Assembly: GCA_963733535.1 (NCBI GenBank)
Contig: CAVTDR010000002.1
Span: 111,775-175,774, forward strand
From: an uncultured Bacteroidota bacterium
GTDB lineage: Bacteria > Bacteroidota > Bacteroidia > Bacteroidales > UBA10428
Reading direction: 5' to 3'
DNA length: 64,000 nucleotides
A program made the translations under genes and the position numbers. The notes under the pieces were generated by a model, which had not been told where the DNA came from, did no database searches, and saw only the letters and a list, made by a program, of their open reading frames with translations. Each line of letters starts with the position of its first letter. Position 1 is the first letter of the stretch. Of the stretch, positions 7,430 to 37,486 are shown piece after piece.

Positions 7430-8737
7430 TTAATGCAGCACATTTGCCTTTTCTGGTACTCCGGTTTCAAAAGGATTACTTGGGTCGGCACTCCATTCGA
7501 ACCAGCCTCCATCATAAACCGATACTCTGGGCCACCCCATAAGCCAGGCATTAAACCATGCTTCACTGCCACGCCATCCTGTACCACAATAAAACGCAAG
7601 ATGCTTATCGGGGGTAATACCATTATTCATCCAGATTTGCGCTATTTCCTGAAATTCACGGGTAGTATGATCCACATTTCTGTAGTTTTCCATATGATAT
7701 GCATCAGTGCCACAATCAGCAAAAACAGAACCCGGAATGCGGCCCTTTGCCTCAATATAATTGTATCCGCTCACTTCACCAATATATTCAGCCCAACTCC
7801 TGACACAAACGAGTTCGGCATCCGGAGATGCTAGTATATGTTTGGCATCGGGTGTGTCTACTACCAATTCGGGATGTGCCGGTATAATCCTTCCAAATTC
7901 GGCTACCGGTTTTTTGGGTTCATCGGAATAAGAAATATCAAAGCCCTCATCCAGCCATGATTGAAATCCACCGTTTAAAACTCTTACATCTCTTACCCCG
8001 GCATAGATCATAATAAAAGCATTGCGAATAGCACCTATATCTCCGGCTGCACTGCCCGGGAATTCATCTGCATTATCAGGAAACATATATTTACCATATA
8101 AAACTATCGTAGTATCCGCTGTAATTCCATGGTTTTCAAGAGCATCTTTTAGCTCCTGGGGCGATCGCCTGTTCCATGTTTCAGGCGCTTCAAGAGCAAG
8201 GGTATCCATATCAATCGCGCCGGGAATATGCCCGGTCAGATAAGCTTCCCTATTTCTGTAATGTGCATGGACAATGACAAACTTATTATTATGATATTCC
8301 AATGGATGCCTTCCTTGAATAAGGTCGTTTACCCAGGAGGCAGAAACCAAATGGTTGTATCGTTCGAGCTTGTTTAGAGGAAGCGCTTTATTGGGCAACC
8401 ATTCCGTTACGAAGCCTGTGTATATTTGAATTTTCGTATATCCTGAATTCTGAAATCTTGAAGCAACACTTTCGATATCTGCGCTGCTATTGCCATATAT
8501 AATAATCGTATGTTCCGGCAAAATGCCTTTATGCCGGACTATTTCAATCCAGTCGACATACTTAAGCCATTTTACCGGAATACTTTTTGCATGTGGAATG
8601 TGACCACCGCGCGGTTCGTTATTCATTCGCCAGCCATTGTAAGCATCTGTCTGTCTCACGTCAATTATATGGTAACCAGGTTTATCATAAATATTTAACA
8701 ATTCCCGGGTTGAAATTTGTTTTATATGATCGGCCAT
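7430..8737 (-). CDS. eanB: Multi-rhodanese sulfurtransferase, EanB-type ergothioneine synthase
   Basis: 435 aa with HAHYRNREAYLTGHIPGA, PDNADEFPGSAAG and the C-terminal active-site loop FYCGTGWRGSEAW. Paired with the EgtD-like gene. Confidence 0.75.
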   Translation of the reverse strand: MADHIKQISTRELLNIYDKPGYHIIDVRQTDAYNGWRMNNEPRGGHIPHAKSIPVKWLKYVDWIEIVRHKGILPEHTIIIYGNSSADIESVASRFQNSGYTKIQIYTGFVTEWLPNKALPLNKLERYNHLVSASWVNDLIQGRHPLEYHNNKFVIVHAHYRNREAYLTGHIPGAIDMDTLALEAPETWNRRSPQELKDALENHGITADTTIVLYGKYMFPDNADEFPGSAAGDIGAIRNAFIMIYAGVRDVRVLNGGFQSWLDEGFDISYSDEPKKPVAEFGRIIPAHPELVVDTPDAKHILASPDAELVCVRSWAEYIGEVSGYNYIEAKGRIPGSVFADCGTDAYHMENYRNVDHTTREFQEIAQIWMNNGITPDKHLAFYCGTGWRGSEAWFNAWLMGWPRVSVYDGGWFEWSADPSNPFETGVPEKANVLH

Positions 8738-13730: not shown

Positions 13731-15673
13731 GTGTGCCGGGCATGTAGTACATCTAAAGGGTGTGGGGATAAATACCCAAGTCCTGAAAGAACCGTAATGA
13801 CCGGAATCTTATAGCCGAGAGCAAGGGTGTCCCGGGCAACTGGGAATCTGAAGGAAGCAGTAGGCGAAAATTTGTTTTGACGAACAGAAACCAGATATGA
13901 GGCCTGTCTTTCCGGGTAACTGAGCCCTGGATCAGGAAGCCCGATAGTCATTCGGAAGGAAAGAGGGGTAAATCTGGCAGAACAAATGGAAAGAGGTACT
14001 ACTTACCCCGGGAGATCTTAACGAGCTCCGGGCAACCGGATAGGATACCGGGCAACCGGTAGACAACAGACGTAAAGAAGTCAGCAGAAGGCATATTAGG
14101 TAAGGACACGAGCCAGTAGAGAGCTGGAGGACTCACGAACTACCGAAGGCCCGAATTTATTAACAAAGGAAAGCTTCAAAGATGCGTAAAAGTAAGGGGC
14201 AGAAAAACGAAGCAAACCAGCAGCTAAAATTGTTCAGCTGGCGAGCAGGAGAACTAACCGAGACCACATCCGGCGGAACCGGAAACAGGACTATGGATAG
14301 AGCGGAATTACTTTCGATATTGGAGAGACAGCGAACCTTAACCGAAAACCTAATAGAAAGGATAGTAGATCATGGCAACCTGATGAGAGCGTACAAACAA
14401 GTGGCGAAGAACGCTGGTAGCAGTGGAATAGACGAGATGGAAGTGAATGAACTGCGACAATGGCTGGGAGGCAATATCCACAAGCTATGCGAAGAATTAC
14501 TCACAGAAAAATATGAGGTGAGTGCAGTACGCAAAGTAGAGATCCAGAAACCCGAAGGGGGCAAACGGATGTTGGGTATCCCGACAGTCAAAGACAGGCT
14601 CATTCAACAAGCCATGTATCAGGAACTGAACCGGTATTATGAGCCAATTTTCAGTGAAAGCAGCTACGGGTTTAGACCTGGAAGAAGTGCACACCAGGCA
14701 ATAGAACAAGCATCAAAGTTCATACAGGAAGGAAAGGAATGGGTAGTGGATATAGACTTGGAGAAGTTCTTCGACAAGATAAACCACGATCGGCTAATGC
14801 AACGACTAAGCAAAGGCGTAGGAGATAAGAAACTTCTAAGGCTAATAAATGCATTCCTTAAGGCTGGAATGATGGACGATGGTCTGATAGAGCAAAGAAC
14901 AGCCGGAACACCACAAGGAGGCCCTTTATCACCGTTACTGTCCAATATTGTATTAGACGAACTGGATAAAGAACTTGAAAATCGGGGCCACAGCTTCTGC
15001 CGCTATGCAGATGATTGCAACATATATGTTAATAGCAGGAAAGCAGGAGAAAGAGTGATGACCTCAATGACAGACTTCATCGAAAAGAAGCTAAAACTGA
15101 AAGTTAATCACGAAAAGAGTGGAGTAAGGCATTGCTCGGATGTGAAATTCTTGGGGTACACATTACTACCAAAAGGCGAGATTAGGGTAGCTGATAAATC
15201 CATAAAACGTCTGAAGGATAGGATAAGGGAAATTACTCGTAGAAATCGGGGGGTAAAACTCGAAACGGTCATCAAGGAACTTAACTTAACCATTACAGGA
15301 TGGACTAACTATTTTAGACTTGCGAATGTATGGTTATCTAACTTCAGGGACCTTGACAGCTGGATTAGAAGAAAACTGCGATGTTATAGACTGAAACAGT
15401 GTGGCAGACGCTACACCATCTTCAAGCTTCTATGCAGCCACAATATCCCCGAACGTAAAAGCTGGAATGCGGTAATGTACTCACAGGGCTGGTGGCAGAT
15501 GTCTAAGAAAATCGCCGTCAACCAAGCCATGAACCCGTTATGGTTCTCACAACAAGGTCTACAATCCATATACCTGAGATTGTCGGTTTAAGAGTTAATA
15601 GAAACCGCCGTGGTACGAAGTCGTATGCCCGGTGGTGTGGGGGGACAGCGGCGTGAGCCGCTTCCTACCCGAT
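13731..15673 (+). mobile_element. Group II intron, class-C-like (about 1.94 kb)
   Basis: 5' GTGTG at 13731, with about 450 nt of structured-looking leader before the IEP ORF. A D5-like hairpin at 15605-15635 has a CCGCCG/CGGTGG base containing CGC, a 2-nt 3' bulge and a 4-nt loop. A D6-like hairpin at about 15639-15670 has a bulged A. The intron ends ...GAT. Boundaries were inferred by eye. Confidence 0.7.
14182..15591 (+). CDS. Group II intron reverse transcriptase/maturase (no endonuclease domain)
   Basis: RT motifs including RYADDCNIY, and a maturase (X) region RRKLRCYRLKQ. There is no HNH tail. The start could instead be the Met at 14293. Confidence 0.9.
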   Translation: MRKSKGQKNEANQQLKLFSWRAGELTETTSGGTGNRTMDRAELLSILERQRTLTENLIERIVDHGNLMRAYKQVAKNAGSSGIDEMEVNELRQWLGGNIHKLCEELLTEKYEVSAVRKVEIQKPEGGKRMLGIPTVKDRLIQQAMYQELNRYYEPIFSESSYGFRPGRSAHQAIEQASKFIQEGKEWVVDIDLEKFFDKINHDRLMQRLSKGVGDKKLLRLINAFLKAGMMDDGLIEQRTAGTPQGGPLSPLLSNIVLDELDKELENRGHSFCRYADDCNIYVNSRKAGERVMTSMTDFIEKKLKLKVNHEKSGVRHCSDVKFLGYTLLPKGEIRVADKSIKRLKDRIREITRRNRGVKLETVIKELNLTITGWTNYFRLANVWLSNFRDLDSWIRRKLRCYRLKQCGRRYTIFKLLCSHNIPERKSWNAVMYSQGWWQMSKKIAVNQAMNPLWFSQQGLQSIYLRLSV

Positions 15674-18037: not shown

Positions 18038-18334
18038 ATGAAAGCGTTATCGGATAATCAAGTTAAGGAATTCCTGTCGGACCATTTAAAAAATTGGTCG
18101 TTTGATGGAAATTGTATAAAAAGAGATTTTAAATTTAAATCTTTCGTAGAGGCATTTTCATTTATGACTGCCGTAGCCCTTGAAGCTGAAAAATTAAACC
18201 ATCATCCCGACTGGAGCAATGTGTATAACACGGTACATATAAATCTAAATACGCATGATGCGGATGGTATCACCCAATTGGATTTTGATCTGGCCAACAA
18301 AATTGATAAGGTACAAGATCATTATGCCAAATGA
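18038..18334 (+). CDS. 4a-hydroxytetrahydrobiopterin (pterin-4a-carbinolamine) dehydratase
   Basis: 98 aa with the ...EAEKLNHHPDWSNVYNTVHINLNTHD motif. Confidence 0.85.
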   Translation: MKALSDNQVKEFLSDHLKNWSFDGNCIKRDFKFKSFVEAFSFMTAVALEAEKLNHHPDWSNVYNTVHINLNTHDADGITQLDFDLANKIDKVQDHYAK

Positions 18335-18575: not shown

Positions 18576-21287
18576 ATGTTTTTATTTCCTGTTACTATAA
18601 AAAAAGTCCAAAACTGGGCTTCTAAAGGTAAATATGATCTGTTAATTGAAATCCTTGGTGACCCCAAGTGTAAAACTGACGTAAAAATCGAAACCATCAA
18701 TCTGCTTGGCAAAAAGCAAGTAGCAAAAGCCATTCCTGTTTTAATCGGCTTAATTAATGAGGTGCCTCTTAGAAAATCTTTAATTGCCTGTTATGGAAAT
18801 TTAAGGGACATCAGGATATATGATACGTTAATTAACCTGCTCCACCACAACAAAGAAAACGAGCCTGAAATTCTTAACGCTTTAGAGAATATCCATTATC
18901 CCGGAACAATACCCATCCTGTTAAAGATGGTTACCAGCGGTTCAGGAAATGATGCTATTTTTCATTCGATTGAGGTAATAGCTGACACAAATGAAAGCTA
19001 CGATGTCATACTGAAAAGTTTCAATCCGGATCAACCGACTTCTTTTTTAATCTCGCTTTGTAAAATATTGGCCGGCAATGAAAAAAAAGAAATCCAGGAC
19101 AAACTCAATGAATATATTTTTACGGAAAATGCTCTTTTAAGAAAAGAAATAGGCCTTGCAAAAAAAACTAAAAAAGAATATGAATGGGCCGACTGGCTGA
19201 AAGGTGATGCCGACGATTTCTGGCGACTGGCTGCTTCAGATAAGGACTATGTTTATGATATGCTCATGGATCAATATGAGAAAGGCAATAAGGTGTTGGG
19301 TCAATATCAGGATGTTTTTGCAAACCATATCTTATTTTTGGCTGATGCTGCATTCAGGGAAAGAGCGCTTTGCTTTATTGAAAAGCATAAACTGGTTAAG
19401 GCGGCCGCGGAACTTGTGAATCATATCCGTAATTATGATGGCCAAATTCGGCTGAGAATAGCTAAAACGCTGTCTGCTTTAGAGATTCGTGATTATAGCG
19501 ACGTGATAAAAGGAGATACACAGGATTTTATGCGTTTATTCGATCATAATCCCTTGGAAGGCGGAAATTTACTTAAGGAAATGGTGACGCGCACATTTCC
19601 GCTTACCAAGGAACAGCTACAAATCTTAGCTGAAATTATTTCCGATTTAGGGAAGTCAAATAAACCAGAAGCCGTTGATGTTTTAGTTGCCGGTGTCAAC
19701 GAGACATCATCAATAGGAGAAAAATGCTTCGACGCTATTCAGCAGGCCGGTAATGAAAAATTTGCTACCATTCTTTCTGATATGTTGATCTCTTATAAAG
19801 ACAAAACACGGATAAAAGCAGCAAAAAAGCTGGATCAGTTAGGAGATCATCGATGGGTGGATATTGTAAAGGGTGATGACAATGATATTGAACGCCTCTG
19901 TCTTGCAGGTTGTAAAACTGCAATCGACAAAGAAATTATTTGCCTTGGATTGGACAGATATAGTCGCGAAAAAGCAGCCAATATATTGTTGAAGGTATTG
20001 AAGAACAATCCCCAGGATGTTCTGAACTGGTCAGATATCGGGAAATCAATAACAACGCCTCATAAGGATGTACATGAAGACAATCATTCAGATCATGAAA
20101 GGACATCGGATTGCCATAGTGATAATGAAGGCCATTCCACACATGACGACTTGGGTTTTAGCCTGACTTTTAATAATGAACAGCTTCAATTTTTCAATGA
20201 GGTTGATTATGCTGAAAGACGCAAGAAGAATACCATTTCTGAGAAATATCTCATTGAGATGTTTGAGTCAAAGCAGGATTCTTTGCGGGATGATATGTTT
20301 GAAGATGCCAGACAGTTTTCCTCGAAAAAGTTGATTGAGGTAATAGGCAGATTGGTTGAGAAAGAGGGTAAATATTCAAAAAAGGCATTTGAATATCTGT
20401 TGCTTCATAAGGTTGCCGCTTTGCCTTATTTTATAAAATCATTGTTATCCTATAGGGATGAAGACATCATCAGGGAAATTTTAGCTGCCGGTGAGCCATC
20501 TTACAAACTTCTTATTAATTTATTATCTGAAAGCAAAAAAGTTGAATATGTAATAGAAGTGTTGGGGTTGCTTGGTAATAAGCAGGCCATTGATCATATA
20601 TTTCCTTATTTAACCTTGTGTGAAAATAAAGGGATCAGAAAGAGTGCTGCAGGTGCCATGATCAATCTGGGTGAAACGGATTGGAAAGATATAATATTTG
20701 GAGATGACAATGATTTTGAGCGACTTGTATTGAAGTGCGATGTCAGGCTGCTAAGTTGGTATAAAACCTCCTTTGCTGACATTCAATATAGTTATCTTAA
20801 AGTACTTCTTGCCAAAACTTTAGCCCGGTTGGGTGAGAAGGAATTAGCAGGAGGAGTTAGAGAGCTGTTGATATCATCAAATCATAGCGTTACGGATGTT
20901 GCCGGGGCTCTGGCCATGATTGACAGTACCGACTGGAGCAAGGTGATCCTTGGCAACGAATCGGATTTTGAACGAATTGCCGGGGTTGGTAATATGGATG
21001 CTGTTAAAGTATTGCTTGTCTTTTTAAAAGCCGCTGAACGGAAAACAAGGGCAGCTGCTGCAGAAAGCCTGATCTCTATCGCCAAGGTAAATTTTTCTGT
21101 TGTCCAGGATGAATGGAAATCTATAACAGCGACAATCGCACAAAAACATGAGGACAGCAGCAAACACGTGAGTCATTGGGCCGAAACACGGTCGGGTGAT
21201 TGCCATTCCGACTTTATTTCACATACTGATACGGGACTGGGATTGGCAATCCCAAATGATTTAGATTTGCGGGCTGATGACAAATAA
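18576..21287 (+). CDS. HEAT (PBS-lyase-type) repeat protein with two internal His/Asp/Cys-rich modules
   Basis: 903 aa with repeated R..AA..L..LG helices. Five copies of (D/T)W..(I/V).(K/F/L)G(D/N)..D(F/I).R(L/I). DCHSD occurs at 20109-20123 and 21198-21212, each within a His-rich stretch ending ..GLG/LGF. Confidence 0.7.
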   Translation: MFLFPVTIKKVQNWASKGKYDLLIEILGDPKCKTDVKIETINLLGKKQVAKAIPVLIGLINEVPLRKSLIACYGNLRDIRIYDTLINLLHHNKENEPEILNALENIHYPGTIPILLKMVTSGSGNDAIFHSIEVIADTNESYDVILKSFNPDQPTSFLISLCKILAGNEKKEIQDKLNEYIFTENALLRKEIGLAKKTKKEYEWADWLKGDADDFWRLAASDKDYVYDMLMDQYEKGNKVLGQYQDVFANHILFLADAAFRERALCFIEKHKLVKAAAELVNHIRNYDGQIRLRIAKTLSALEIRDYSDVIKGDTQDFMRLFDHNPLEGGNLLKEMVTRTFPLTKEQLQILAEIISDLGKSNKPEAVDVLVAGVNETSSIGEKCFDAIQQAGNEKFATILSDMLISYKDKTRIKAAKKLDQLGDHRWVDIVKGDDNDIERLCLAGCKTAIDKEIICLGLDRYSREKAANILLKVLKNNPQDVLNWSDIGKSITTPHKDVHEDNHSDHERTSDCHSDNEGHSTHDDLGFSLTFNNEQLQFFNEVDYAERRKKNTISEKYLIEMFESKQDSLRDDMFEDARQFSSKKLIEVIGRLVEKEGKYSKKAFEYLLLHKVAALPYFIKSLLSYRDEDIIREILAAGEPSYKLLINLLSESKKVEYVIEVLGLLGNKQAIDHIFPYLTLCENKGIRKSAAGAMINLGETDWKDIIFGDDNDFERLVLKCDVRLLSWYKTSFADIQYSYLKVLLAKTLARLGEKELAGGVRELLISSNHSVTDVAGALAMIDSTDWSKVILGNESDFERIAGVGNMDAVKVLLVFLKAAERKTRAAAAESLISIAKVNFSVVQDEWKSITATIAQKHEDSSKHVSHWAETRSGDCHSDFISHTDTGLGLAIPNDLDLRADDK

Positions 21288-23640
21288 CCTGATTTCCTGT
21301 TCGGCCCGTATTCATAATAATCCTCATTTTATGGTGATTCCCAGTAATGCATGCAATGCTTCATGCCATTATTGCTTTGGACCCAACAAAGGAAAAATTA
21401 TCAATGAAGAGCAATTCAGGGAGAATATCAGTTTTATTGAAAAGGTCGTTCAAACTACACAACAAGCCAAGGTAAACATAACATTCCATGGAGGTGAGCC
21501 GCTGATGGCTCCGCTGAATATTTGGAAGAGCGGATTAAGATTAATAGACCGGACTTTCAAAACACAAAAGATAAAGCTTCAAATTCAAAGCAATTTATGG
21601 AACTTAACCCAGGAACATTGTACTTTATTCAAGGATTATGGTATTTCATTCAGTACCAGTCTTGATGGACCTGAGGAAATAAATGATTTGCATCGTGGGA
21701 AAGGCTATTTCTCCAAAACAATGAACGGTGTTGATCTTTTGCGGAAAAACAATATGAAGATCGGGTCAATAGCCACTTTCTCTCCAAAAAACAGGGTTAA
21801 GTTAAATGAGATCTTTACTTTTTTTGTAAAGCAAAGGCTTTCATTTGCTGTGCATGCTTCATTACCACCTCTAACTGGTAAGACAAATTCTTTTGTTTTG
21901 AGCCCTCACCAATATGGAACATTGTTATGTGACCTGTTTGATTTGTATGTGCCCAACCGCAAGTATATCAGTATTTCATCCTTTGATCAGCTTTGCCAAT
22001 CAATCACAGATAACAGTGGCAAAGTCTGCACATTCAAGGACTGTACAGGTTCCTTTCTGGCCATAGATCCGGAAGGAAACATATATCCCTGTCAACGGTT
22101 TTCGGGGAACCCGGATTATCGCCTTGGAAATGTAATCGATCTGGAAATAATCAACGGCTTGCAGAATAACCCTGTTACTAACAGCCTGGTTACCCACCAT
22201 AAACAAATAAAAATTGAATGTAAGGATTGTGATCATATTAACTATTGCAAGGGTGGGTGTTATTACAACAGCAAAGCATCAAAAGAAACCAAAGATCCTT
22301 ACTGCGAATCGTATAAAATGATTTTCAACAAAATCCGGAATAGCCTGTTCGAAGAAATGAGCAGTCCTGATAATTTCCGGGAAATTGTAGATAAACCTTT
22401 TACCAGCAATGGGAATCCGCTCCTTCGAAAAGGTCCTGTGATTGAACTTACGCAAAAGCCACATCCGGTGACAAAAGCGATAAACTCGGCTAAAATTATT
22501 TCGGTTGTTGCCTTATCGCGATCAGCTTCAATAGACGAGGCCCATCATTCGTTGAAAAATCTGGGCATTGGTGTTGAAAAATCTTACCTTGAAAATCTGA
22601 ATGAACAGTTCAGCAGCAACCATTTCAAATTAAATAACTGCTACATACATACTACCTTTAATTGTCAGTTATCATGCACCCATTGCTATGCAAAAGCAGG
22701 AAATTCTACCGGCGAATCAATGCATATATCACAGATAACCGATATTTTAATGCAGGTGAAAGAAAACAAATTCAGGCAGGCAATTATTACCGGTGGTGAA
22801 CCGCTGATCTGCGATGATCTGAATGGTTTTCTGGATCGCATGATTGAACTTCGTCAGCAAATAGAGCCTGTAATTATTGTGCTTAGGACGAATTTCACCA
22901 TGCCATTGACAGACGGATTACTAGCTAAAATAGCCCAGTCATTTCATCAGATTGTTGTAAGTGTTGACGGCGACAAGAATTATCATGAAAATCGGAGAGG
23001 GGAAGGAACTTACTCCAAAGTAACTGAAAACATTCAAAGATATCAGCATGTTATCCAAAATGTAAATAAGCCTGCTGAGTTATCTATTGCTTGTGTAATG
23101 CCGGCCAATGATATTCATGGTGAACCGGGTCAAAGTGTCCGCGATTTCGCTTATGCAAACAACATAAGGAGAGTTAGGTTTAAACCTCTTTTGCCCATTG
23201 GTAGAGCTGCCGACACATACACTTCCCTGGTTTCTGAGGCTCTGGATAGTTATGTCGACGTAGAGGAAGCCATAAAATATCCGTTTAAACCATTTAAAAC
23301 CTGTGGTATTGGTTATAATGTATACATAGAGCCAACAGGTAATGTTTTTCCCTGTTATGCGTTTCATAAACCCCATACTTTTATTGGCAATGTATTTGAA
23401 TCGGGCTTGAATGGAGTAGTGATGAGCGAGCCTTTTAGATCTTTATCTGAACATAATGTGGATACCAACTCAAAGTGCAAAAAATGCGGATATCGCTATC
23501 TGTGCGGAGGCGCATGTCGTGCCTGGGGTCGGAATTTTACGCAGTATGATCTGGATGCACCCCCTCCCGACTGTGAAGGTCTGTATAAAAAGGCCGAAGA
23601 TATCTATTTGGCTGCACTGGACTATCTGAATAGTAGGTAG
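21277..23640 (+). CDS. Tandem-duplicated radical SAM/SPASM enzyme
   Basis: 787 aa. CNASCHYC lies near the N-terminus and a second CQLSCTHC at 22663-22686. Two SPASM-like Cys clusters are present (CKDCDHINYCKGGC and CKKCGYRYLCGGAC). The start overlaps the upstream stop by 11 nt. Confidence 0.8.
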   Translation: MTNNLISCSARIHNNPHFMVIPSNACNASCHYCFGPNKGKIINEEQFRENISFIEKVVQTTQQAKVNITFHGGEPLMAPLNIWKSGLRLIDRTFKTQKIKLQIQSNLWNLTQEHCTLFKDYGISFSTSLDGPEEINDLHRGKGYFSKTMNGVDLLRKNNMKIGSIATFSPKNRVKLNEIFTFFVKQRLSFAVHASLPPLTGKTNSFVLSPHQYGTLLCDLFDLYVPNRKYISISSFDQLCQSITDNSGKVCTFKDCTGSFLAIDPEGNIYPCQRFSGNPDYRLGNVIDLEIINGLQNNPVTNSLVTHHKQIKIECKDCDHINYCKGGCYYNSKASKETKDPYCESYKMIFNKIRNSLFEEMSSPDNFREIVDKPFTSNGNPLLRKGPVIELTQKPHPVTKAINSAKIISVVALSRSASIDEAHHSLKNLGIGVEKSYLENLNEQFSSNHFKLNNCYIHTTFNCQLSCTHCYAKAGNSTGESMHISQITDILMQVKENKFRQAIITGGEPLICDDLNGFLDRMIELRQQIEPVIIVLRTNFTMPLTDGLLAKIAQSFHQIVVSVDGDKNYHENRRGEGTYSKVTENIQRYQHVIQNVNKPAELSIACVMPANDIHGEPGQSVRDFAYANNIRRVRFKPLLPIGRAADTYTSLVSEALDSYVDVEEAIKYPFKPFKTCGIGYNVYIEPTGNVFPCYAFHKPHTFIGNVFESGLNGVVMSEPFRSLSEHNVDTNSKCKKCGYRYLCGGACRAWGRNFTQYDLDAPPPDCEGLYKKAEDIYLAALDYLNSR

Positions 23641-23769: not shown

Positions 23770-24114
23770 ATGATTACTACTGAATTACTCAAAGGTTCAC
23801 TAAAATCAATTGTACTAAAACTCCTGGCTGAAAACGGCAGGATGTATGGTTATGATATTACCCGTAAAGTAGAAGAAATAACCAACGGGAAGATTAAACT
23901 CACTTATGGTGCCTTATATCCAGTACTTCATAAACTCGAAGTGGATGGGGCAGTCATTACGGAAGCAGAAAATTTTAACAACCGAACACGAATCTATTAT
24001 AAGCTTACACCGAAAGGTAATGGATTTGCCACGGAAAAAATCAGGGAATTACAGGAATATCTTGAAGTAATGGCGATGCTGTTAAAATCAAATCCTGAAC
24101 TTGGGATTGAATAA
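23770..24114 (+). CDS. PadR-family transcriptional regulator
   Basis: 114 aa with LLAENGRMYGYDITRKVEE...GALYPVLHKLEVDG. Confidence 0.9.
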   Translation: MITTELLKGSLKSIVLKLLAENGRMYGYDITRKVEEITNGKIKLTYGALYPVLHKLEVDGAVITEAENFNNRTRIYYKLTPKGNGFATEKIRELQEYLEVMAMLLKSNPELGIE

Positions 24115-24154
24115 AACCAGCCCTTGTTTCAATCATAATTTCCAAATTCTGATT

Positions 24155-25470
24155 ATGGATTACATTTTAAATATATCGAATATCGAGTTCCTCAAAAAAG
24201 AGATAGGCTAGTTCCGGACTTACCTATTCTCATTTGATGGATGAACTGATAGATCATGTTTGTTGCGATGTCGAATACGAAATGCGCAATGGTTTACCTT
24301 TCGCAAAGGCCTACGAAATGGTAAAAAACAAAATTGGCATGGAAGGTTTGGAACGCATACAGCATGAGACCCTTTATTTAATTGATAAAAAATATCGAAT
24401 TATGAAAAATACGATGAAGATTTCGGGAATGATCGCGCCCATCTTGCTGGCCTTTGGATCACTTTTTAAAATTCAGCATTGGCCGGGGGCCGGTGTTTTG
24501 TTTGTATCTGGCTTCTTTTTGCTTTCGTTTTGTATTCCTGCCCAGCGCCATTTATGTCAGCTATAAGGAAGTGAGCAACTTTACAAGAAAATGGACACAT
24601 ATTATCGGTTTTCTTGGAACCTTTTTCATTTCAATCGGGTTCTTGTTTAAAATCCAGCACTGGCCTTTGGCAGGTATTGCCTTAAACATTGGCATTATAG
24701 TAACCTGCCTGCTTTTTTTGCCCATGGTGCTCCGAAACCAGCTGAAGGATCAAAATAATCCTGTTCCAAAGCTTGTTTATGTAATTGCATTTGCCGGATT
24801 CATTGGAGATCTGGCCGGATTTTTATTCAAAATTATGCATTGGCCCGGGGCAGGAACTATTTTGATAACCGGATGCATTTTGCTTGTAGTCGTTGCATTT
24901 CCATTATATGTATATCATGCCTACAAAGATCATCTGCACATTGCAAATAGCTTTGTATTTATTCTGATTGTAATGGTATGGTTTATCATTCCGATAACCC
25001 TAACCTCATTGAATCTTTCAAGGGGAGTTTTGAGGAATGTGTATGAACAAAACCAGTCATTGGAAAATGATCTTGAATTCCTGGAAGAGATGAATCTCGT
25101 CACGGTTGATGGCATAAAGGATAATCAATCTGTTAATGATCAATCAAAGAACCTGATGGAATTCATAGGAGAAATGAAAGCTAAATTACAAGATAATGAA
25201 ATGCCGGATAGTGATGAAATGATTCAATTGACTAACCGGGTTCATGAATATAAAAGTCAATTGATGTCTTTAGTAAATGATGAAAAATACCGTGCAGTTA
25301 TTAGCCGGACACTTGAAGAACCTTCAGGTTTAAGAGATCATCCATTTGATAATCCTGAATTGCTTCTGAATCATTTAATCTTTCTTCAAATGAATATCGG
25401 GATAGCTGAACAAACCGCTTTAAGGCAGTTGGAGATGAAAAATAATCAGGCAATCCAGGCAATCAACTAG
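24155..25470 (+). pseudogene. Frameshifted PadR-partner membrane protein (DUF1700-like N-terminus plus FKIxHWPGAG TM hairpins)
   Basis: Three reading-frame pieces. MDYILNISNIEFLKKEIG-stop sits at 24155-24211. ORF 24234-24566 and ORF 24454-25470 join as ...FFLLSF|VFLPSAIY across a T-run at about 24516-24531. The paralog reads LLFLSLIFLPVAIA at the same position. Confidence 0.55.
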
Positions 25471-25485
25471 TAAAATCATAAAGAA

Positions 25486-26433
25486 ATGAAAAACAAAATA
25501 TATTATCTCGGAATATTTTCAGGAATAGTAACCGCATCTGGCTGCATTTTTAAAATTATGCACTGGCCATTGGCAGGGATATTATTAACAATTGGATTAC
25601 TATTTCTATCGTTAATTTTTCTTCCTGTTGCCATTGCAAACATGGTCAAAATGGAGAACGACAGGAAACTTAAGATTTTTTACATCCTGACTGCCATTGT
25701 TATGGCTATTAATTTTATAGGAGCCTTGTTTAAAATATTGCATTGGCCCGGTGCAGGTATTATCATGATGATTGCTATTCCTTTGCCGTTTGTTGTTTTG
25801 TTACCTGTCTGGGTATATTCCAATGGAGCAGTTAATAAGATAAATTGTAAAAATATCTTAGCTGTAATGTTCTTCTTTGCATACTTTGCAGCGATATCAA
25901 GCATACTTGCACTCGGTGTATCCAAAAGTGTAATTAAAGATTTTGATACATCCGCACGTATTTTACAGGAAAAGACGATGACATTAAAGGAGAATACAGC
26001 ACTGTTTTCAAAGTATTCTGATATAAATAATCCGGTGAACCATGAGGCAGAAAGACTGTGTAATAAAATTGCATCTGTGGAAAGCATAATTCTTAAAGGC
26101 GGCCAACAGGAATTATCTTCAAAACATGCTGTATACACGGATGTAAAGCCGGTGATTGAAACCCGTTATCTGACCGAGTTAAAATCAGAAATTATCAATT
26201 TCAGCAATCTGGTTCAAAAGCAGTATAGTTCAGACAATCGGATTTGCAAGTATGTTGAAGAAACTTTTGCGATTTATTCTGATAACGCTAATGATGTTCG
26301 TTGGGAAGATGCCTGGTTGAGCAGCAACGTCATTGCCTCAGCCATACAAAGTCTCAACCTTTTGGAATTCAGGGTTAGGATGATCGTATTGCAGGTGAAT
26401 ACCAAAGAAACGATTGACAATATGGCTGATTAA
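25486..26433 (+). CDS. Membrane protein, paralog of the preceding gene
   Basis: Contains FKIMHWPLAGILL and FKILHWPGAGIIM TM hairpins, then a soluble helical C-terminal half. Confidence 0.7.
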   Translation: MKNKIYYLGIFSGIVTASGCIFKIMHWPLAGILLTIGLLFLSLIFLPVAIANMVKMENDRKLKIFYILTAIVMAINFIGALFKILHWPGAGIIMMIAIPLPFVVLLPVWVYSNGAVNKINCKNILAVMFFFAYFAAISSILALGVSKSVIKDFDTSARILQEKTMTLKENTALFSKYSDINNPVNHEAERLCNKIASVESIILKGGQQELSSKHAVYTDVKPVIETRYLTELKSEIINFSNLVQKQYSSDNRICKYVEETFAIYSDNANDVRWEDAWLSSNVIASAIQSLNLLEFRVRMIVLQVNTKETIDNMAD

Positions 26434-29977: not shown

Positions 29978-30664
29978 TTAAGGAATTGACTTAAAAAAGT
30001 CAAGGACAATATTTATTTTTTCTGGTATTATTTTTTCACCAACGACAAATGAAGGTATAAAGAGTAGTAATATTAAAAAAACATCACCAATGAATGAATA
30101 TGTGAATGGACCTAATGATTTTAATTTAGGTCTACTAAAATTCCATTCAGAACTAGTATTAATTCCACCCTTTTCGTAGGTAACTAAATTTATTTGTTTG
30201 CTTACTAGTGTTGCTTCCAACATGAAATTAGAAAAAGTTGAAGTAATTAAAGAAGTTTTTTTAAAAAAACTTGTTGAATGCCACCTGGTACCTAAAACTA
30301 AGAATGTATCTGAAAATCTTTCAACAATAACCGTAAATAGACGGATTCCATAGTAAATTGAGTATTCAAGTTTAGAAAAAAGCTTAAAAGACCCATTTTC
30401 CAAACTTTCAAAAAGATGAATAAGAAGCCCTGAAAATGCGACAATTCTAAGAGATAGAATCAAATTGTCATTAAATGGTTTATTGGCTAAAAAATAATTC
30501 AGTATAAAAAGTAAAGATGCAAAGATTATTGGATACACCTTAAAGAGTTTAATGCTTCGTTCACGATATGCCGCCCTAATAAATAGGCATGAAACAGGTA
30601 TTAAGAAACACCAAACTGTGTTTGCGAATAATAGCCATAATATTATTAGTAAAATAAGTATCAT
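29978..30664 (-). CDS. ECF-transporter T-component-like membrane protein (divergent)
   Basis: Multi-TM protein positioned between an ECF-type ATPase and cobT. The ORF could extend to 30712. Confidence 0.5.
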   Translation of the reverse strand: MILILLIILWLLFANTVWCFLIPVSCLFIRAAYRERSIKLFKVYPIIFASLLFILNYFLANKPFNDNLILSLRIVAFSGLLIHLFESLENGSFKLFSKLEYSIYYGIRLFTVIVERFSDTFLVLGTRWHSTSFFKKTSLITSTFSNFMLEATLVSKQINLVTYEKGGINTSSEWNFSRPKLKSLGPFTYSFIGDVFLILLLFIPSFVVGEKIIPEKINIVLDFFKSIP

Positions 30665-30665
30665 T

Positions 30666-31988
30666 TTATATGTATTTAATTGTTCTACATAAACCCGATA
30701 TTGCTTTGTCATGATTAAAAATTATAATAGCTTGATTTTGAAAGCTATTAAGCAGTTTGATAAAAGCAATTTTGCTTTTATAATCTAAACCTGTTGTTGG
30801 TTCATCTAATATTGTGAGTGATTTCGAGTAATATAAAGCACAGGCTATACTTAGCAATTTTTGCTTTGCTCTACAAAGATTTCTTGGGTGAGATTGCCAT
30901 AAGCTTTCGTCAATGCCACATAAGGTTAATAATTTATTAACAGGTAATTCATTCCATATTTTCCAATGGATGAATGACCTTTCTGGAAATTGAAGTGAAA
31001 TACCCGGTCTAATTTTTTTCTTTGATTTTATAAGTTTACCGTTATACTTTTTAATTTTTCCAGTTAATATGCGACCTAAAGTTGTTTTACCACAGCCATT
31101 ATTACCTTCAATAATTACTATTTCGTTTTCTTTTAATTCAAATGAAATAGGTTTTGTTCTGTTCTCAACATAGACATCTATTACGTCTAACAAATTGTCA
31201 CCAATTACACGATATAAAAGATTATCTTTTAGTTTTTTACCTACGATATCATCAGGAAGAAATATTTGCGAATCATAAGGAGAGTCAGTGATAATTCCAT
31301 TTTTATCACCATATAATTCTTTTACACCATGTCCAATAAGTTTGATTTCTTCTGGAGAAAGGCCATGAAGAATAGCGGAACCACCCAATAGGACGTATTC
31401 ATTTAGCCATTTTAGAAATGCTGTTAAAAAGTCTTTGTCTAAGTTTGAAGAACTAAAATCAGCAATAATTAATTTGGGTTTTCTTTCAAATGCATTTGCA
31501 CAAATTAAACGATGTTTTTCACCACCTGAAATAACCTCGGTTTTTCTATCAATTATCTCATATAAACCATATCTAATAAGGTCAGTAGAATGTGGAGTCT
31601 TATTTATTAAAGAAAAAGAATAAAAAAAGTCATCTCTTACTGTTCGTCCAAAAATTGCAATATCTGGATTTTCGTAAATGAAACTTATTTTCTGAGCTCT
31701 TTCTTTTTTAGGTATTTTATATAATTCAATTCCTTCGAGCTTAATAAAGGATAATTCTTCAAGATTAATTTCAATAGGCTGTCTTTCAAGATTATTATCT
31801 TCACCAGGCTTTGTGAGATTTCTCGCAGTATGTAAACCTGAAATTAGGAATAAAAAGTCTTGAGAACTGAATTCAGATTCCGCAAATAGATGAATTATTT
31901 CACCTTTGTTTAAACAAAATCCACTTGAGGAATATTTTTTGTCTTGAATTTCATAACTAAATGCATCACAGGTTAATAAAGGATTCAT
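30666..31988 (-). CDS. Fused double ABC ATPase (ECF A-A' type) with one degenerate site
   Basis: NBD2 has Walker A GNNGCGKTT and Walker B ILDEPTTGLD, but its signature is LCRAKQKL. NBD1 lacks a Walker A (AESEFSSQDF) but keeps the signature SGGEKHRL. Confidence 0.75.
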   Translation of the reverse strand: MNPLLTCDAFSYEIQDKKYSSSGFCLNKGEIIHLFAESEFSSQDFLFLISGLHTARNLTKPGEDNNLERQPIEINLEELSFIKLEGIELYKIPKKERAQKISFIYENPDIAIFGRTVRDDFFYSFSLINKTPHSTDLIRYGLYEIIDRKTEVISGGEKHRLICANAFERKPKLIIADFSSSNLDKDFLTAFLKWLNEYVLLGGSAILHGLSPEEIKLIGHGVKELYGDKNGIITDSPYDSQIFLPDDIVGKKLKDNLLYRVIGDNLLDVIDVYVENRTKPISFELKENEIVIIEGNNGCGKTTLGRILTGKIKKYNGKLIKSKKKIRPGISLQFPERSFIHWKIWNELPVNKLLTLCGIDESLWQSHPRNLCRAKQKLLSIACALYYSKSLTILDEPTTGLDYKSKIAFIKLLNSFQNQAIIIFNHDKAISGLCRTIKYI

Positions 31989-31992
31989 CTTA

Positions 31993-32505
31993 TTATAAAT
32001 TTGAAATTTTTGTTCTAACGATTAAAAGATATGCTATGATGGCCATAATAATGTTTGCTGCGGCAGCAAATAATAAAAATGGAATCAAAGAAGTTGCTAC
32101 AGCCTTTTCAAGATTAAAAACTGGTGTAATCATTAATAATAGAGGACCAATTATGCCATTTAGCAAAACAGCTATAATTCCACTAATAAAAAGGTAAATT
32201 TTTTGACGTTTAATTTTTGAAATGTATCCAAAAATCAGACACCAGAAAAACATTTCTACAGCAACATAAATATGTAAGCCTCCGAAAGGAAAACCAGCAG
32301 TAGCAGCAGAGCCAATATGACCAATTAATCCTACAAAAGCACCAACTAATGGAGTAAAAAATACTGCGGCGAAAAAGGCAGGAGCTGAATCAAGTGCTAT
32401 AGAACCTGCAGGACCAGGAATCTTAATAAGACCTAGTGCTGTTGAAACAACTGAGAAAATGATTATTGCAATCAAATTTCTGCTTGAAAATGAGTCATTC
32501 TTCAT
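31993..32505 (-). CDS. ECF-transporter S-component-like membrane protein
   Basis: 170 aa with 5-6 TM segments and Gly/Ala-rich helices. Sits immediately upstream of the ATPase. Confidence 0.55.
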   Translation of the reverse strand: MKNDSFSSRNLIAIIIFSVVSTALGLIKIPGPAGSIALDSAPAFFAAVFFTPLVGAFVGLIGHIGSAATAGFPFGGLHIYVAVEMFFWCLIFGYISKIKRQKIYLFISGIIAVLLNGIIGPLLLMITPVFNLEKAVATSLIPFLLFAAAANIIMAIIAYLLIVRTKISNL

Positions 32506-33355
32506 AATTATAGGTTTTTATAATATTAATAAATTGGAAATAGTTTTCATTAAAAGTGAAGGATTCAATAATAGGAAGACCATCAAATGATAAAATATAC
32601 TCATATAATTGCTTCGTAGTATATATTTCGACCATAAGCCTTAAAATTCGATAATTGGGATGTTTATCAATCTTGTTGGAGAATATTGTAGAATTCATTG
32701 CTTTAAGCTTAAAATCAACGAGTAAAGAAATTATATCTCTTAAAGATGTAATATTCTTAGTAATTAATCTACTTAATTCGTCTTCTTCAATTGATGGCAC
32801 TTGTATTAAATTGATACATGATTTTTTTATTTCATTGAGAAAATTATTCATCGATTTGACGATACTGCCATTAAGCTTGGGATTAAACTCTCTATAGCTC
32901 GTATAATAAAAAGATTTATACAATGTGTTCCAAAGACTATAAAAGTCAAATGCTTCTTCTTTTTCTAATTCCTTTATTAAAGAAGTTTCTTTTATATAAT
33001 CTCTGAATTCCTTTCTATGTAAAAAGTAGTTTTTCAAATTTTCACTTTCCTTATAATTCTTTAATTGATAGTTTGTTCTTTTTAATGTCTCTTCATTTTG
33101 ATTAAGTCTTACAATCGAAACTTTTATGGTAAGAACAGTTATAAAAGCAGCAGCGATTTTAATGCTTGTGCTGTATATAGAAATAAAATTATTAATTCCT
33201 TCTATGCTAAAAAGTAGCTTCAGAGGCCATTCTTCTTTAACAGTTACAAAAATTGAAACAATTAGAATTATAAATAATAAGGCTATAATTGCATTAATTG
33301 CTAAAGTCCAAAGTTTTAAACTAAAGCTGGGTGAGTTATTTAAATCTACTTCCAT
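32495..33355 (-). CDS. Hypothetical membrane-anchored protein
   Basis: 286 aa with 2-3 N-terminal TM helices and a helical soluble tail. It overlaps the S-component start by 11 nt and lies 17 nt after pAgo. Confidence 0.5.
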   Translation of the reverse strand: MEVDLNNSPSFSLKLWTLAINAIIALLFIILIVSIFVTVKEEWPLKLLFSIEGINNFISIYSTSIKIAAAFITVLTIKVSIVRLNQNEETLKRTNYQLKNYKESENLKNYFLHRKEFRDYIKETSLIKELEKEEAFDFYSLWNTLYKSFYYTSYREFNPKLNGSIVKSMNNFLNEIKKSCINLIQVPSIEEDELSRLITKNITSLRDIISLLVDFKLKAMNSTIFSNKIDKHPNYRILRLMVEIYTTKQLYEYILSFDGLPIIESFTFNENYFQFINIIKTYNYEE

Positions 33356-33372
33356 ATATAGAAATCTTTATA

Positions 33373-35478
33373 TTATAAAAACCACAAATTATCTTTCCCG
33401 AATGGTGGTATTTCGTGCCCTTCGAAGTGAGGGAACATTTCGGCCACTAATTCGGGGTATTTAATTGTTACTGGTAAATTTTGTTGCCTAACGGATTTCC
33501 AATACATCCGACTGAATTGATAGACCTGGTTTAATAGCTCTTTTATGACTTTATAATCCTTTTCAAGCTCTCTTTTATTACAGGTAATCTTAACCTTAAT
33601 GGGGAAGGGGAACCCGTCTTTTACATTGAAATTACTGTTTTTATAGCGTGTATTGTTGAACAGGAGAAACTGATTATATCCTATGTTTATAAATGTTCCG
33701 CTATGTGGCATTAGGTTATCAAAGTTATTGTCGAAAGCAACAATATCGTGCGATTCGGTTTTATTGATTGATACTATGTAAACAGGTACGTTTATTCCGA
33801 GGTTTTTCAAACCATTTTCTATGGGTTCAAGCTCTTTCTGGCTAATGTTTTTGTAAAAATGAATGATTAGTCTTTGTAGATTCCGGTTTACTGATGCGTA
33901 TTCTTTAACAGACCTGATTATTGAACCAGCAAGTTCATCAATCTGGTTATTCATAAAACATTCGAAACGGTTGAATTTTCCATTGTTGTTAAAGCTAAAG
34001 GCACTGCCAATGTATTGTATGTTTTCATCCAAATTCCGGAAAGCACCAACGCCCACGATTAACTCGTTACGTAAAGGAACATCCAAACGCCAGGGAACGC
34101 CGTCTAATTTGGCTAAAACAGCAATTGAAATGTTATTAAGGCTAAATATATAGCTGGTATTGCTTTTAATCTTTTGAGCGTCTATTGTCTGTGAGGTTAT
34201 TTTGTGTTTTAACAGTAATTCTTTAATCTTATAATAAATGGCCTTTTCCGATTTGGTGGCATTGTCTTTGGCAAAGGGGCTTATATATATTGCTATGTAG
34301 CGTACTTCGTCTTTAAATTCACGCTTACGCAGATATTCTTCGATTTCGGGTAGTGGGTTCTCTTGATTATTAAACACAATACTAAAGCCCGGCAAGGTGA
34401 AAAACGGAACTTTGGCAAAGTTTGTAAGGCCTTTGAATGAGATGTTATCGAAGTGTAACCCTTTTTCAAGAAATTCCTTTAATTGTGTGGCTTTGTCTTT
34501 ATCTGAATTGTGGCAAATAAAAAAGAACTGTACTTTATTGTATGGCGATACTTCGAGCGGACCATGTTTGTCCATTCCTAAATAGGGTACACTGTGGTAT
34601 TTCTTATCGCCAAATAAAAGCAGGTTGCTGTTATCGGCTACTTCACCAATTTTAACATCTTCAACCGGAATAAAACTATCCGATACAAGGGGAATTACTT
34701 TTTTGAACTCCTCAGTATTCAGGTAGGTAATGTAAAAATCAGTTATATGCTTTTTGAATTTTAGATAGGGGTTTGTTTTATCTGGTTTATCGCCTGGCTG
34801 GTTTAAGGCATCCCTGATATCGAAATTCCAAACAGGAAACACTACGTTCAGGTTTCTTTGCCCTTCTTCTGATAAATCTTCGTGCCGGATTAAATTATTC
34901 CGAAAAATAACCCAGTTAAAACATTCAGGGGCAACCTCCGACATTAGCGTAACAATACTTTTACGGAATACCTTTGAAACACCGGCATAGGCTATGAGCA
35001 ATTCGGGGTCTCCGGTAATGCGGCCAAACTGGACTTTCAGCGTGTATTTTTCAAAAAGGTTGTATTCGTTATTTATCTGTTTTGAAGCTATCCAGATTTC
35101 GGTATCGCAAACAAAATTAGGGTTTACAATAAATCCATTGCTTTTAAAATAATCGTGTATTTGCTTATTGTAATATCGTTTTAAAAGCGAGGCTGTAAAG
35201 GCCGAGTTTTTAACCTTAACAGTTTTTTCTTCATCTTCTTCGGAAGTAATGTAAGTCGGTATGCTGTTTTTGGTTACAGCAAACAAACCGCTGTGGTTAT
35301 TGGTATATTGGGTATAATAGTGTTCCTGTTCCCCAAATTGTTCTCTTACCTCATTGGGTACTAATGTATGAAACACCCTGAAAGAATTTTCTACTTCTTC
35401 ATTCGAGAAATGAAAGGTGTATTCATCCGAAGGATGTTTAAAAGTTAGGATATTAAAGGTAAGATTTGGCGTACTCAT
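33373..35478 (-). CDS. Prokaryotic Argonaute, long and catalytically inactive (long-B-like)
   Basis: 701 aa. MID-like AIYYKIKELLLKHKITSQTIDAQKIK and PIWI core NISIAVLAKLDGVPWRL. Catalytic positions are substituted: IVGVGAF replaces G-x-D-V, and IIHFYKN replaces ..RDG. Confidence 0.8.
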   Translation of the reverse strand: MSTPNLTFNILTFKHPSDEYTFHFSNEEVENSFRVFHTLVPNEVREQFGEQEHYYTQYTNNHSGLFAVTKNSIPTYITSEEDEEKTVKVKNSAFTASLLKRYYNKQIHDYFKSNGFIVNPNFVCDTEIWIASKQINNEYNLFEKYTLKVQFGRITGDPELLIAYAGVSKVFRKSIVTLMSEVAPECFNWVIFRNNLIRHEDLSEEGQRNLNVVFPVWNFDIRDALNQPGDKPDKTNPYLKFKKHITDFYITYLNTEEFKKVIPLVSDSFIPVEDVKIGEVADNSNLLLFGDKKYHSVPYLGMDKHGPLEVSPYNKVQFFFICHNSDKDKATQLKEFLEKGLHFDNISFKGLTNFAKVPFFTLPGFSIVFNNQENPLPEIEEYLRKREFKDEVRYIAIYISPFAKDNATKSEKAIYYKIKELLLKHKITSQTIDAQKIKSNTSYIFSLNNISIAVLAKLDGVPWRLDVPLRNELIVGVGAFRNLDENIQYIGSAFSFNNNGKFNRFECFMNNQIDELAGSIIRSVKEYASVNRNLQRLIIHFYKNISQKELEPIENGLKNLGINVPVYIVSINKTESHDIVAFDNNFDNLMPHSGTFINIGYNQFLLFNNTRYKNSNFNVKDGFPFPIKVKITCNKRELEKDYKVIKELLNQVYQFSRMYWKSVRQQNLPVTIKYPELVAEMFPHFEGHEIPPFGKDNLWFL

Positions 35479-35492
35479 GCTATTAATGTTCT

Positions 35493-36836: not shown

Positions 36837-36837
36837 A

Positions 36838-37482: not shown

Positions 37483-37486
37483 ATAT

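Follow-up and report, generated by a model that had tools for sequence, protein, structure and literature searches.

A stretch of 64,000 nucleotides from an uncultured Bacteroidota bacterium of the order Bacteroidales (GenBank contig CAVTDR010000002.1, positions 111,775 to 175,774), called the window below, carries two overlapping genes which, with a probability that we put at about 0.6, form a maturase-substrate pair and belong to an uncharacterised, widespread protein-maturation system. The first gene (18576-21287 of the window, plus strand) encodes a HEAT-repeat protein of 903 residues, the putative substrate, in which two module-bearing units are fused; the second (21277-23640, plus strand) starts 11 nucleotides before the HEAT stop codon and encodes a di-domain radical SAM/SPASM maturase of 787 residues. 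These assignments draw on the open reading frames (ORFs), Pfam matches and AlphaFold2 (AF2) models, together with orthologs of the first protein and homologs of the second. An earlier reading of the same DNA, made from the letters alone (the sequence-only reading), had given the same coordinates, lengths and overlap, which agree exactly with the ORF list, and the HEAT_PBS, PF04055 and SPASM models all match the proteins on which it expected them.

We infer from the genomic behaviour of the pair which protein is the substrate, what chemistry is involved and what role the system has in the cell. Cross-linking of a short His/Asp/Cys-rich module in the HEAT-repeat protein is suggested by linkage of the two genes across several phyla, by the conservation and flexibility of the module, by its multi-copy behaviour and by two intact radical SAM/SPASM domains in the enzyme. 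Any particular chemistry is much less certain than the pairing itself.

Linkage and copy number of the gene pair

A hidden Markov model (HMM) of the module, run on six-frame ORFs, matches 16 of 19 loci of this radical SAM family, always on the strand of the enzyme. It finds nothing in 66 control loci (640 kb) whose radical SAM/SPASM genes are of other kinds. One of the three misses has a variant module visible by eye; the other two are short or fragmentary loci. At two further loci, on contigs of 818 and 900 kb, the module protein starts at the enzyme stop, overlapping or abutting it, and searches begun from the module side lead to an adjacent radical SAM gene in both long-contig cases; at L098 an additional module protein lies on the opposite strand. 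Start and stop codons of the pair overlap in the window and at L001, L009, L097 and L098. The expectation that the two genes are conserved neighbours is thus borne out: the pair is kept, and is usually translationally coupled, while the flanking genes differ from locus to locus. Across the loci compared, neither a protease gene nor an exporter gene accompanies it consistently. The idea that a conserved small ORF next to the two genes encodes a precursor was considered and rejected, no such ORF being conserved beyond a locus that is 89% identical.

The number of module proteins per enzyme varies. A double enzyme is accompanied by a single module protein at L096 and L020, by two (detected with the HMM) at L008, L013 and L016, and by one strong and one weak HMM match at L012, where the second copy is counted by eye. 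Two separate HEAT proteins (615 and 362 residues), both of which end in a module, precede the enzyme at L008. At L009 (Parabacteroides sp. PF5-9) there are again two proteins, of the helical-repeat kind; the enzyme overlaps the second, which has a module at its end, while the end of the first resembles, by eye, a degenerate module. Three tandem module-protein paralogs come after the enzyme at L091, L015 has one HMM match and at least two further module-like C-termini seen by eye, and at L095 a stand-alone C-terminal half (C-half) of the enzyme, linker included, is found with one module protein. The sequence-only reading had set two modules against two maturase halves; with one to three or more module proteins per enzyme, this 2:2 match fails as a rule and a strict stoichiometry is rejected. 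A constant module on a variable scaffold, with one, two or three tandem paralogs per enzyme, behaves as multi-copy precursors do.

The His-x-Asp/Cys module

The HEAT-repeat protein of the window carries the module twice. Module 1 is internal (residues 485-533, 20028-20174, plus strand, WSDIGKSITTPHKDVHEDNHSDHERTSDCHSDNEGHSTHDDLGFSLTFN; module HMM E = 5.1e-16) and holds five HxD triplets and one Cys; module 2 is C-terminal (residues 847-894, 21114-21257, plus strand, WKSITATIAQKHEDSSKHVSHWAETRSGDCHSDFISHTDTGLGLAIPN; E = 1.4e-19), holds three HxD triplets and one Cys, and ends in GLGL(A)IP, which fits the family consensus. All eight HxD triplets of the protein lie inside the modules, against a whole-protein expectation of 2.0 +/- 1.3. 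Aligned with each other, the two segments of about 50 residues reach a Smith-Waterman score of 72, as compared with 28.9 +/- 5.9 for shuffled sequences, none of which, in 2000 trials, attains 72. The two copies of the pentapeptide DCHSD that had been noticed earlier are present (residues 512-516, nucleotides 20109-20123; residues 875-879, nucleotides 21198-21212), and a repeated 5-mer is by itself unremarkable, being found in 36% of shuffles of the same protein.

Among the top 152 relatives of the HEAT-repeat protein, 91 carry a module of about 45 residues, nearly always at the C-terminus. The consensus of 94 modules reads W..I...I..P-H(96%)-x-D(89%)...H-x-D...S-S-D-C(87%).H-x-D...H-x-D-x-G-I-G-L-x-F-P, with two to five HxD/E triplets per module; the HxD triplets and GIGL vary less than the Cys, which seven modules lack. 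The surroundings of the Cys also vary: it stands in CX2D in 18 modules, in CxHxD in 17, in another CX3D/E arrangement in 10 and in other contexts in 42, and is directly preceded by Asp or Glu in 59 of the 94. The window modules, with C-H-S-D, are of the CX2D type. Because some modules have no Cys and the distance from Cys to the acidic residue is variable, DCHSD is a lineage-specific form of a broader module. Conservation of the DCHSD segments had been named as a crucial point; the His/Asp/Cys segments are indeed conserved, DCHSD as a unit is not, and what stays constant is PHxD...HxD...HxDxGIGLxFP.

In orthologs of 89%, 51% and 44% identity (P0002, P0003 and P0124), the modules are among the best-conserved stretches. 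They also have the lowest predicted local distance difference test (pLDDT) scores in the AF2 model of the protein, with 10-residue block means of 26-36 for module 1 and 28-39 for module 2; because of these values, the modules are read as flexible, accessible segments, which the model fits. Neither Pfam-A nor NCBIfam has a model that covers the module, at a threshold as loose as E <= 1. A word-indexed search with a 48-sequence module profile returned only seven short fragments and is uninformative on family size.

Several variations surround the module in the wider family. The chain ends in -Asp-Phe (LDF, RDF, PDF or TDF) in 54 of 90 module-bearing relatives (P0124-P0272), and in seven of these a CxxC...CxxC zinc-ribbon separates the module from the final DF; both features are missing from the window protein. 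At L008, a stop-to-stop frame of 43 codons that lies just upstream of the enzyme (7805-7933, plus strand) encodes a scaffold-free module (…SAKCMTHYDTMKHADTGIGLEIPPELKV, followed by the stop); it could be a remnant, or else a short substrate that stands alone.

The HEAT-repeat scaffold

The protein that bears the modules matches Pfam HEAT_2 (E = 1.4e-18) and HEAT_PBS, and its AF2 model (three-sequence alignment, pLDDT 67) is an all-alpha solenoid scaffold. Its N- and C-terminal halves are homologous (blastp E = 1e-11), as the bipartite build proposed earlier would have it, and the most fitting reading of the protein is that two module-bearing substrates have fused, one with the module now internal and the other with the module at the end. 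A five-fold motif that the sequence-only reading had noted without recognising it is confirmed at residues 204, 307, 427, 703 and 787. It reads W...(I/V).GD..DF.RL and marks the family, with 82 of 90 module-bearing relatives carrying it. Its copies in the window, found by motif scan on the plus strand, are WADWLKGDADDFWRL (19185-19229), YSDVIKGDTQDFMRL (19494-19538, the copy at residue 307, with Tyr replacing Trp), WVDIVKGDDNDIERL (19854-19898), WKDIIFGDDNDFERL (20682-20726) and WSKVILGNESDFERI (20934-20978).

Full-length orthologs are rare; the GTDB representative genomes include a single species with one, a metagenome-assembled genome of an uncultured Bacteroidales bacterium. A word-indexed homolog search with the HEAT protein found three proteins only, and an exhaustive phmmer search of 1.84 billion representatives, which gave 267 relatives at E <= 1e-3, was needed to reach the family. 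Across it the scaffold ranges from about 100 to more than 1500 residues and the module stays constant; the Parabacteroides scaffold is a helical-repeat protein that has no Pfam HEAT match. Models of the phycobilin lyase/NblB group (CpcE, CpcF) score 34.6 and 21.6 bits, against equivalog cutoffs of 300-330, and this resemblance is limited to generic PBS-type HEAT repeats.

Judged by eye, the N-terminus of the window protein (MFLFPVTIKKVQNW, 18576-18640) is unlike a signal peptide. Many N-termini in the family (P0125-P0272) are basic or aromatic, of the type MFxxLKxWWYxRRL, and 41 of 131 start with MF; this segment may be a recognition element.

The double radical SAM/SPASM enzyme

Pfam Radical_SAM (PF04055, E = 1.2e-31), SPASM and Fer4_12 each match the 787-residue enzyme twice, in agreement with the two complete radical SAM/SPASM units recognised from the sequence. 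The chain divides into an N-terminal half (N-half; residues 1-362, 21277-22362), a helical linker that contains PLLRKGPxIEL...PHP in the homolog consensus (residues 363-452, 22363-22632) and the C-half (residues 453-787, 22633-23637), all on the plus strand. The radical SAM motif CX3CX2C is found at residues 26-33 (21352-21375) and 463-470 (22663-22686); in 27 homologs, the C-half copy is invariant and the N-half copy is conserved in at least 90%. Both halves contain the seven-Cys motif CX9-15GX4C...CX2CX5CX3C...C by which SPASM domains (PF13186/TIGR04085) were tested. The eight SPASM cysteines of the N-half (C251, C256, C272, C315, C318, C324, C328 and C343, in a region spanning residues 251-343) and the seven of the C-half (C676, C693, C734, C737, C743, C747 and C766, residues 676-766) are likewise invariant in 27 homologs.

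The halves share 22.6% identity and are of different SPASM subtypes. The enzyme is therefore a fusion of two different maturases rather than a recent tandem duplication, and the duplicated maturase halves of the sequence-only reading have to be given up. The N-half (residues 17-363) matches TIGR04083, ‘peptide-modifying radical SAM enzyme’, with 366.6 bits at a cutoff of 300; the models that rank after it, namely DynA, anaerobic sulfatase-maturating enzyme (anSME), PapB, YhhB, CbpB, QhpD, HxsB and SCIFF, all score below their cutoffs. Its best sequence match in the PDB is anSME (97.8 bits), with which all eight anSME cluster cysteines align. A Foldseek search with the AF2 model of the enzyme (27 homologs, pLDDT 87.8, predicted TM-score 0.82) likewise places anSME first, with a target TM-score of 0.82, followed by ChlB, CteB, TigE and SuiB.

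For the C-half, the best PDB match is CteB (5wgg, 53.7 bits), with the SPASM cysteines aligned; the C-half has the canonical seven of these and no eighth Cys upstream. In CteB, the seven-Cys pattern means that an iron site of auxiliary cluster I stays open and can bind a substrate Cys, and the CteB-like pattern suggests, by analogy, such a site in the C-half. The linker is conserved and, in the AF2 model, all-helical, with no winged helix resembling a recognition element (RRE) of the pathways for peptides that are made on the ribosome and modified after translation (RiPPs). The stand-alone C-half of L095 starts with this same helical segment.

Nearly all of the 365 enzyme homologs have the same two-domain length, and the best 120 are nearly all of 750-900 residues. 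Their source names include Thermoguttaceae, Hydrogenedentes, Planctomycetes, Pseudomonadota, Clostridiales, Parabacteroides sp. PF5-9 and Desulfovibrio, and also Bacteroidales. Two candidate variants of this architecture were rejected: an apparent loss of the N-half cluster in 25 homologs is due to start-codon miscalls, and no natural fusion of module and enzyme occurs among 120 homologs.

Proposed maturation and its alternatives

In the maturation that we favour, the HEAT-repeat protein would be the substrate, its helical-repeat scaffold presenting the flexible module to the enzyme. Both enzyme halves would act on each module and install intramolecular cross-links, more probably in sequence on every module than with one half dedicated to one module. 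The HxD triplets would be converted into three-residue cyclophanes joining His-C2 to Asp-C-beta, and the CteB-like C-half could make an additional thioether from the module Cys, as a second step or as an alternative. What was a floppy tail would thus be stiffened into a knot, one that plausibly binds metal and is still attached to the HEAT scaffold inside the cell. With neither a consistently linked protease or exporter nor, by eye, the look of a signal peptide, the product probably stays on its scaffold in the cytoplasm.

The His-to-Asp cyclophane, which the sequence-only reading did not consider, is the most likely of three chemistries because HxD is the most constant repeat of the module, because cross-links on His-x-X motifs have precedents and because YhhB and ChlB lie near the N-half. 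Proof of cross-links from His-C2 to C-beta exists for the motifs HTK, HAA and HNR (PMC11499958) and for an HAS motif (PMC12912966), and the HxS-repeat protein HxsA is matured by two radical SAM enzymes (PMC13128918).

Several points weigh against this proposal. We infer the modification, and with it every functional step, from genomics. The characterised cyclophane, thioether and anSME models all score below their cutoffs on the enzyme, and a cyclophane on HxD was not found documented in the literature searched. The linker, modelled as all-helical, is not a canonical RRE and so does not explain how a substrate would be recognised; Pfam gives no PqqD or RRE match in the enzyme. Tails rich in His, Asp and Cys can bind metals unmodified. 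The seven Cys-less modules and the varying distance from Cys to Asp speak against one fixed thioether ring. The training set of the module HMM overlaps the loci tested, as it includes the window, L001, L006, L008 and L020; the matches at L013-L016, L018, L021, L097 and L098 are independent of it. On the module side, the contigs of P0133, P0128 and P0143 are too short to show neighbours.

The same substrate could instead be modified chiefly through a thioether from the module Cys to an Asp or Glu carbon, as in QhpD, PapB or sactipeptide maturation; a thioether of the QhpD kind was one option named in the sequence-only reading. The module Cys, at 87%, is common and usually flanked by Asp (as in SDC), the C-half combines the seven-Cys SPASM pattern with a thioether synthase, CteB, as its best PDB match, and the PapB and QhpD models reach substantial though sub-threshold scores (181.6 bits at a cutoff of 340 and 138.7 bits at a cutoff of 453, respectively). 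A key reaction on Cys is nonetheless unlikely, given the modules that have none, the variable Cys-acidic spacing and thioether-family models that all remain below their cutoffs; a thioether may accompany cyclophane formation instead of replacing it.

Somewhat less probable still is that the HEAT protein is a metal-binding partner or scaffold, its tail chelating Fe, Zn or Cu or docking onto the enzyme, while the enzyme acts elsewhere. Groups of His, Asp and Cys are well known to bind metals, HEAT solenoids commonly serve as scaffolds, and the lack of a consistently linked protease or exporter would suit such a role. Two or three tandem paralogs per enzyme are not, however, expected of accessory subunits, SPASM enzymes of these subtypes modify peptides or proteins, and no alternative conserved substrate gene stands beside the pair.

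A RiPP pathway, in which the HEAT domain would act as a giant leader and the modified module would be cleaved off as a small peptide, is very unlikely. The module does occupy the C-terminal position of a core peptide, genes for ABC/RND export lie downstream at L009, and L008 has its bare module frame. But the conserved core of the system contains no peptidase or transporter, one module of the window protein is internal, and large, variable scaffolds with a signature motif of their own suggest that the scaffold itself has a function.

Least probable of all is an anSME-like N-half that oxidises the module Cys to formylglycine, the other option named in the sequence-only reading: although anSME is the closest solved structure by sequence and by fold and its eight cluster cysteines are conserved in the N-half, TIGR03942 scores 235.1 bits against a cutoff of 349.45, the HEAT protein has no C/S-x-P/A-x-R motif, no sulfatase family matches that protein or the flanking ORFs scanned, and the second radical SAM domain and the conserved HxD and GIGL would be left without explanation.

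Genomic surroundings

The gene immediately upstream of that for the HEAT protein (18038-18334, plus strand) encodes a pterin-4a-carbinolamine dehydratase; since the called genes of related loci do not include it, it probably has no connection with the pair. Downstream, a PadR-family regulator (23770-24114, plus strand) is followed by paralogous membrane ORFs, the whole region extending over 23770-26433. Counterparts of these membrane ORFs downstream of L003, the 89%-identical locus, match Pfam GldL_N, and there a MatE gene stands between the radical SAM gene and the GldL_N-type ORFs. Further upstream, a group II intron occupies 13830-15591 (plus strand), with Rfam matches to RF02001 (136.6 bits, 13830-14002) and RF01998 (14041-14151) and an intron-borne reverse-transcriptase/maturase ORF of 469 residues (14182-15591). 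G+C content is 0.29-0.33 over 30001-42000, as compared with 0.36-0.46 in the rest of the window, and this stretch may be a compositionally distinct island. A promoter and terminator scan, using the sigma-70 consensus, which is unsuited to Bacteroidota, returned counts at shuffle level.

Within a subfamily, a P-loop protein of about 200 residues (AAA_28, PF13521) is encoded by a third recurrent gene beside the radical SAM and module genes: L015 (12467-13171), L016 (6842-7474), L019 (195-851), L094 (1664-2287), L095 (10797-11603) and L096 (11561-12196). It is absent from the window and from Bacteroidales-type loci. At L096 (1-21560), the radical SAM, HEAT-module and AAA_28 set is embedded in a type VI secretion cluster, next to VipA/B, Hcp, TssF, VasE, DotU and IcmF genes.

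Novelty and significance

The earlier impression that no described system has this architecture stands, as far as Pfam, NCBIfam, PADLOC and the searched literature go; PADLOC gives generic similarities only, to radical SAM proteins (viperin) and to HEAT proteins. The module, the substrate family and the fused architecture are undescribed in these sources, and the general class, radical SAM/SPASM-dependent maturation, is already known.

To our knowledge, nearly all characterised radical SAM/SPASM enzymes act on short, leader-guided peptides. The pair described here belongs to a delimited and recurrent system of hundreds of protein clusters, among whose source names are Planctomycetota, Hydrogenedentes, Pseudomonadota, Clostridiales, Desulfovibrio and Bacteroidales, and its apparent substrates are large HEAT-repeat proteins with an uncurated His-x-Asp/Cys/GIGL module. 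Two distinct maturases are naturally joined in the enzyme, which bears on the question of why two radical SAM activities are needed; the pair as a whole is a testable case for new protein cross-link chemistry and for RRE-free substrate recognition by SPASM enzymes. A cultured carrier, Parabacteroides sp. PF5-9, opens the system to genetics.

A more specific version of the maturase-substrate proposal is tentative: the double enzyme might make a multiply cross-linked His/Asp(/Cys) knot that would sit at the tip of the HEAT scaffold and provide it with an inbuilt metal site or redox cofactor. If this is true, such knots would constitute a new, multi-phylum class of post-translationally matured proteins. 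The matured proteins may have a role in conflict or defence, as suggested by analogy with the HXS system discussed below and by the example embedded in the type VI secretion cluster of L096.

Comparison with known systems

By family assignment, the nearest entry is TIGR04083, a hypothetical equivalog of NCBIfam whose cutoff the N-half exceeds and after which NCBI names several homologs. That model describes a single domain of about 376 residues, whereas the enzyme here adds the linker and a different radical SAM/SPASM domain, and the name says nothing of a HEAT-module partner.

The thioether enzymes CteB/SCIFF, PapB and QhpD share with the present system the seven-Cys pattern of the C-half (CteB) and a substrate Cys near Asp. 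They differ in that the modules have no fixed CXnD spacing, 7% of them have no Cys, and the enzyme gives no PqqD or RRE match; in place of the RRE or PqqD-like domain that marks a leader-dependent RiPP maturase, it has the all-helical linker. anSME (PDB 4K36-4K39), the closest solved structure to the N-half, has the same eight cluster cysteines and acts on a whole protein without an RRE. The enzyme here, in contrast, falls below the anSME cutoff, the HEAT protein lacks the anSME target motif, and no ORF scanned at the locus matches a sulfatase family.

Triceptide synthases that act on His motifs comprise HtkB (HTK), HaaB (HAA), YhhB (HNR), MicB (HAS) and ChlB (PMC11499958, PMC12912966). Like the enzyme described here, they are radical SAM proteins of the SPASM type, and their substrates contain repeated aromatic-X-X triplets, His included; ChlB is the second-best structural match to the enzyme. 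Scores on the corresponding models are all sub-threshold (YhhB 157.7 bits at a cutoff of 445, GrrM/OscB 118.7 at 310, FxsB 109.9 at 370 and AmcB 117.3 at 425). Triceptide substrates are short leader-plus-core peptides, whereas those proposed here are proteins of 100 to more than 1500 residues; HxD is not a reported motif, and the enzyme has a second radical SAM domain.

The conceptually closest known system is, by analogy, HXS, in which the radical SAM enzymes HxsB and HxsC, together with HxsD, act in the maturation of HxsA, an antiphage effector with His-Xaa-Ser repeats (PMC13128918). The two differ in several respects. The triplet here is HxD, with one HxS only in the window HEAT protein, and no small HxsD-like gene is conserved beside the pair; neither a peptidoglycan-binding domain (by Pfam) nor the look of a signal peptide (by eye) is found. 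The HxsB model scores 128.8 bits on the enzyme, far below its cutoff of 370, and the two radical SAM domains are fused in one chain that is paired with a HEAT solenoid scaffold. What the systems have in common is two radical SAM activities and a full-size protein with repeated His-x-(small polar) triplets that is, or here would be, itself the product, and in these respects the HEAT/radical SAM pair would extend the very recent HXS precedent.

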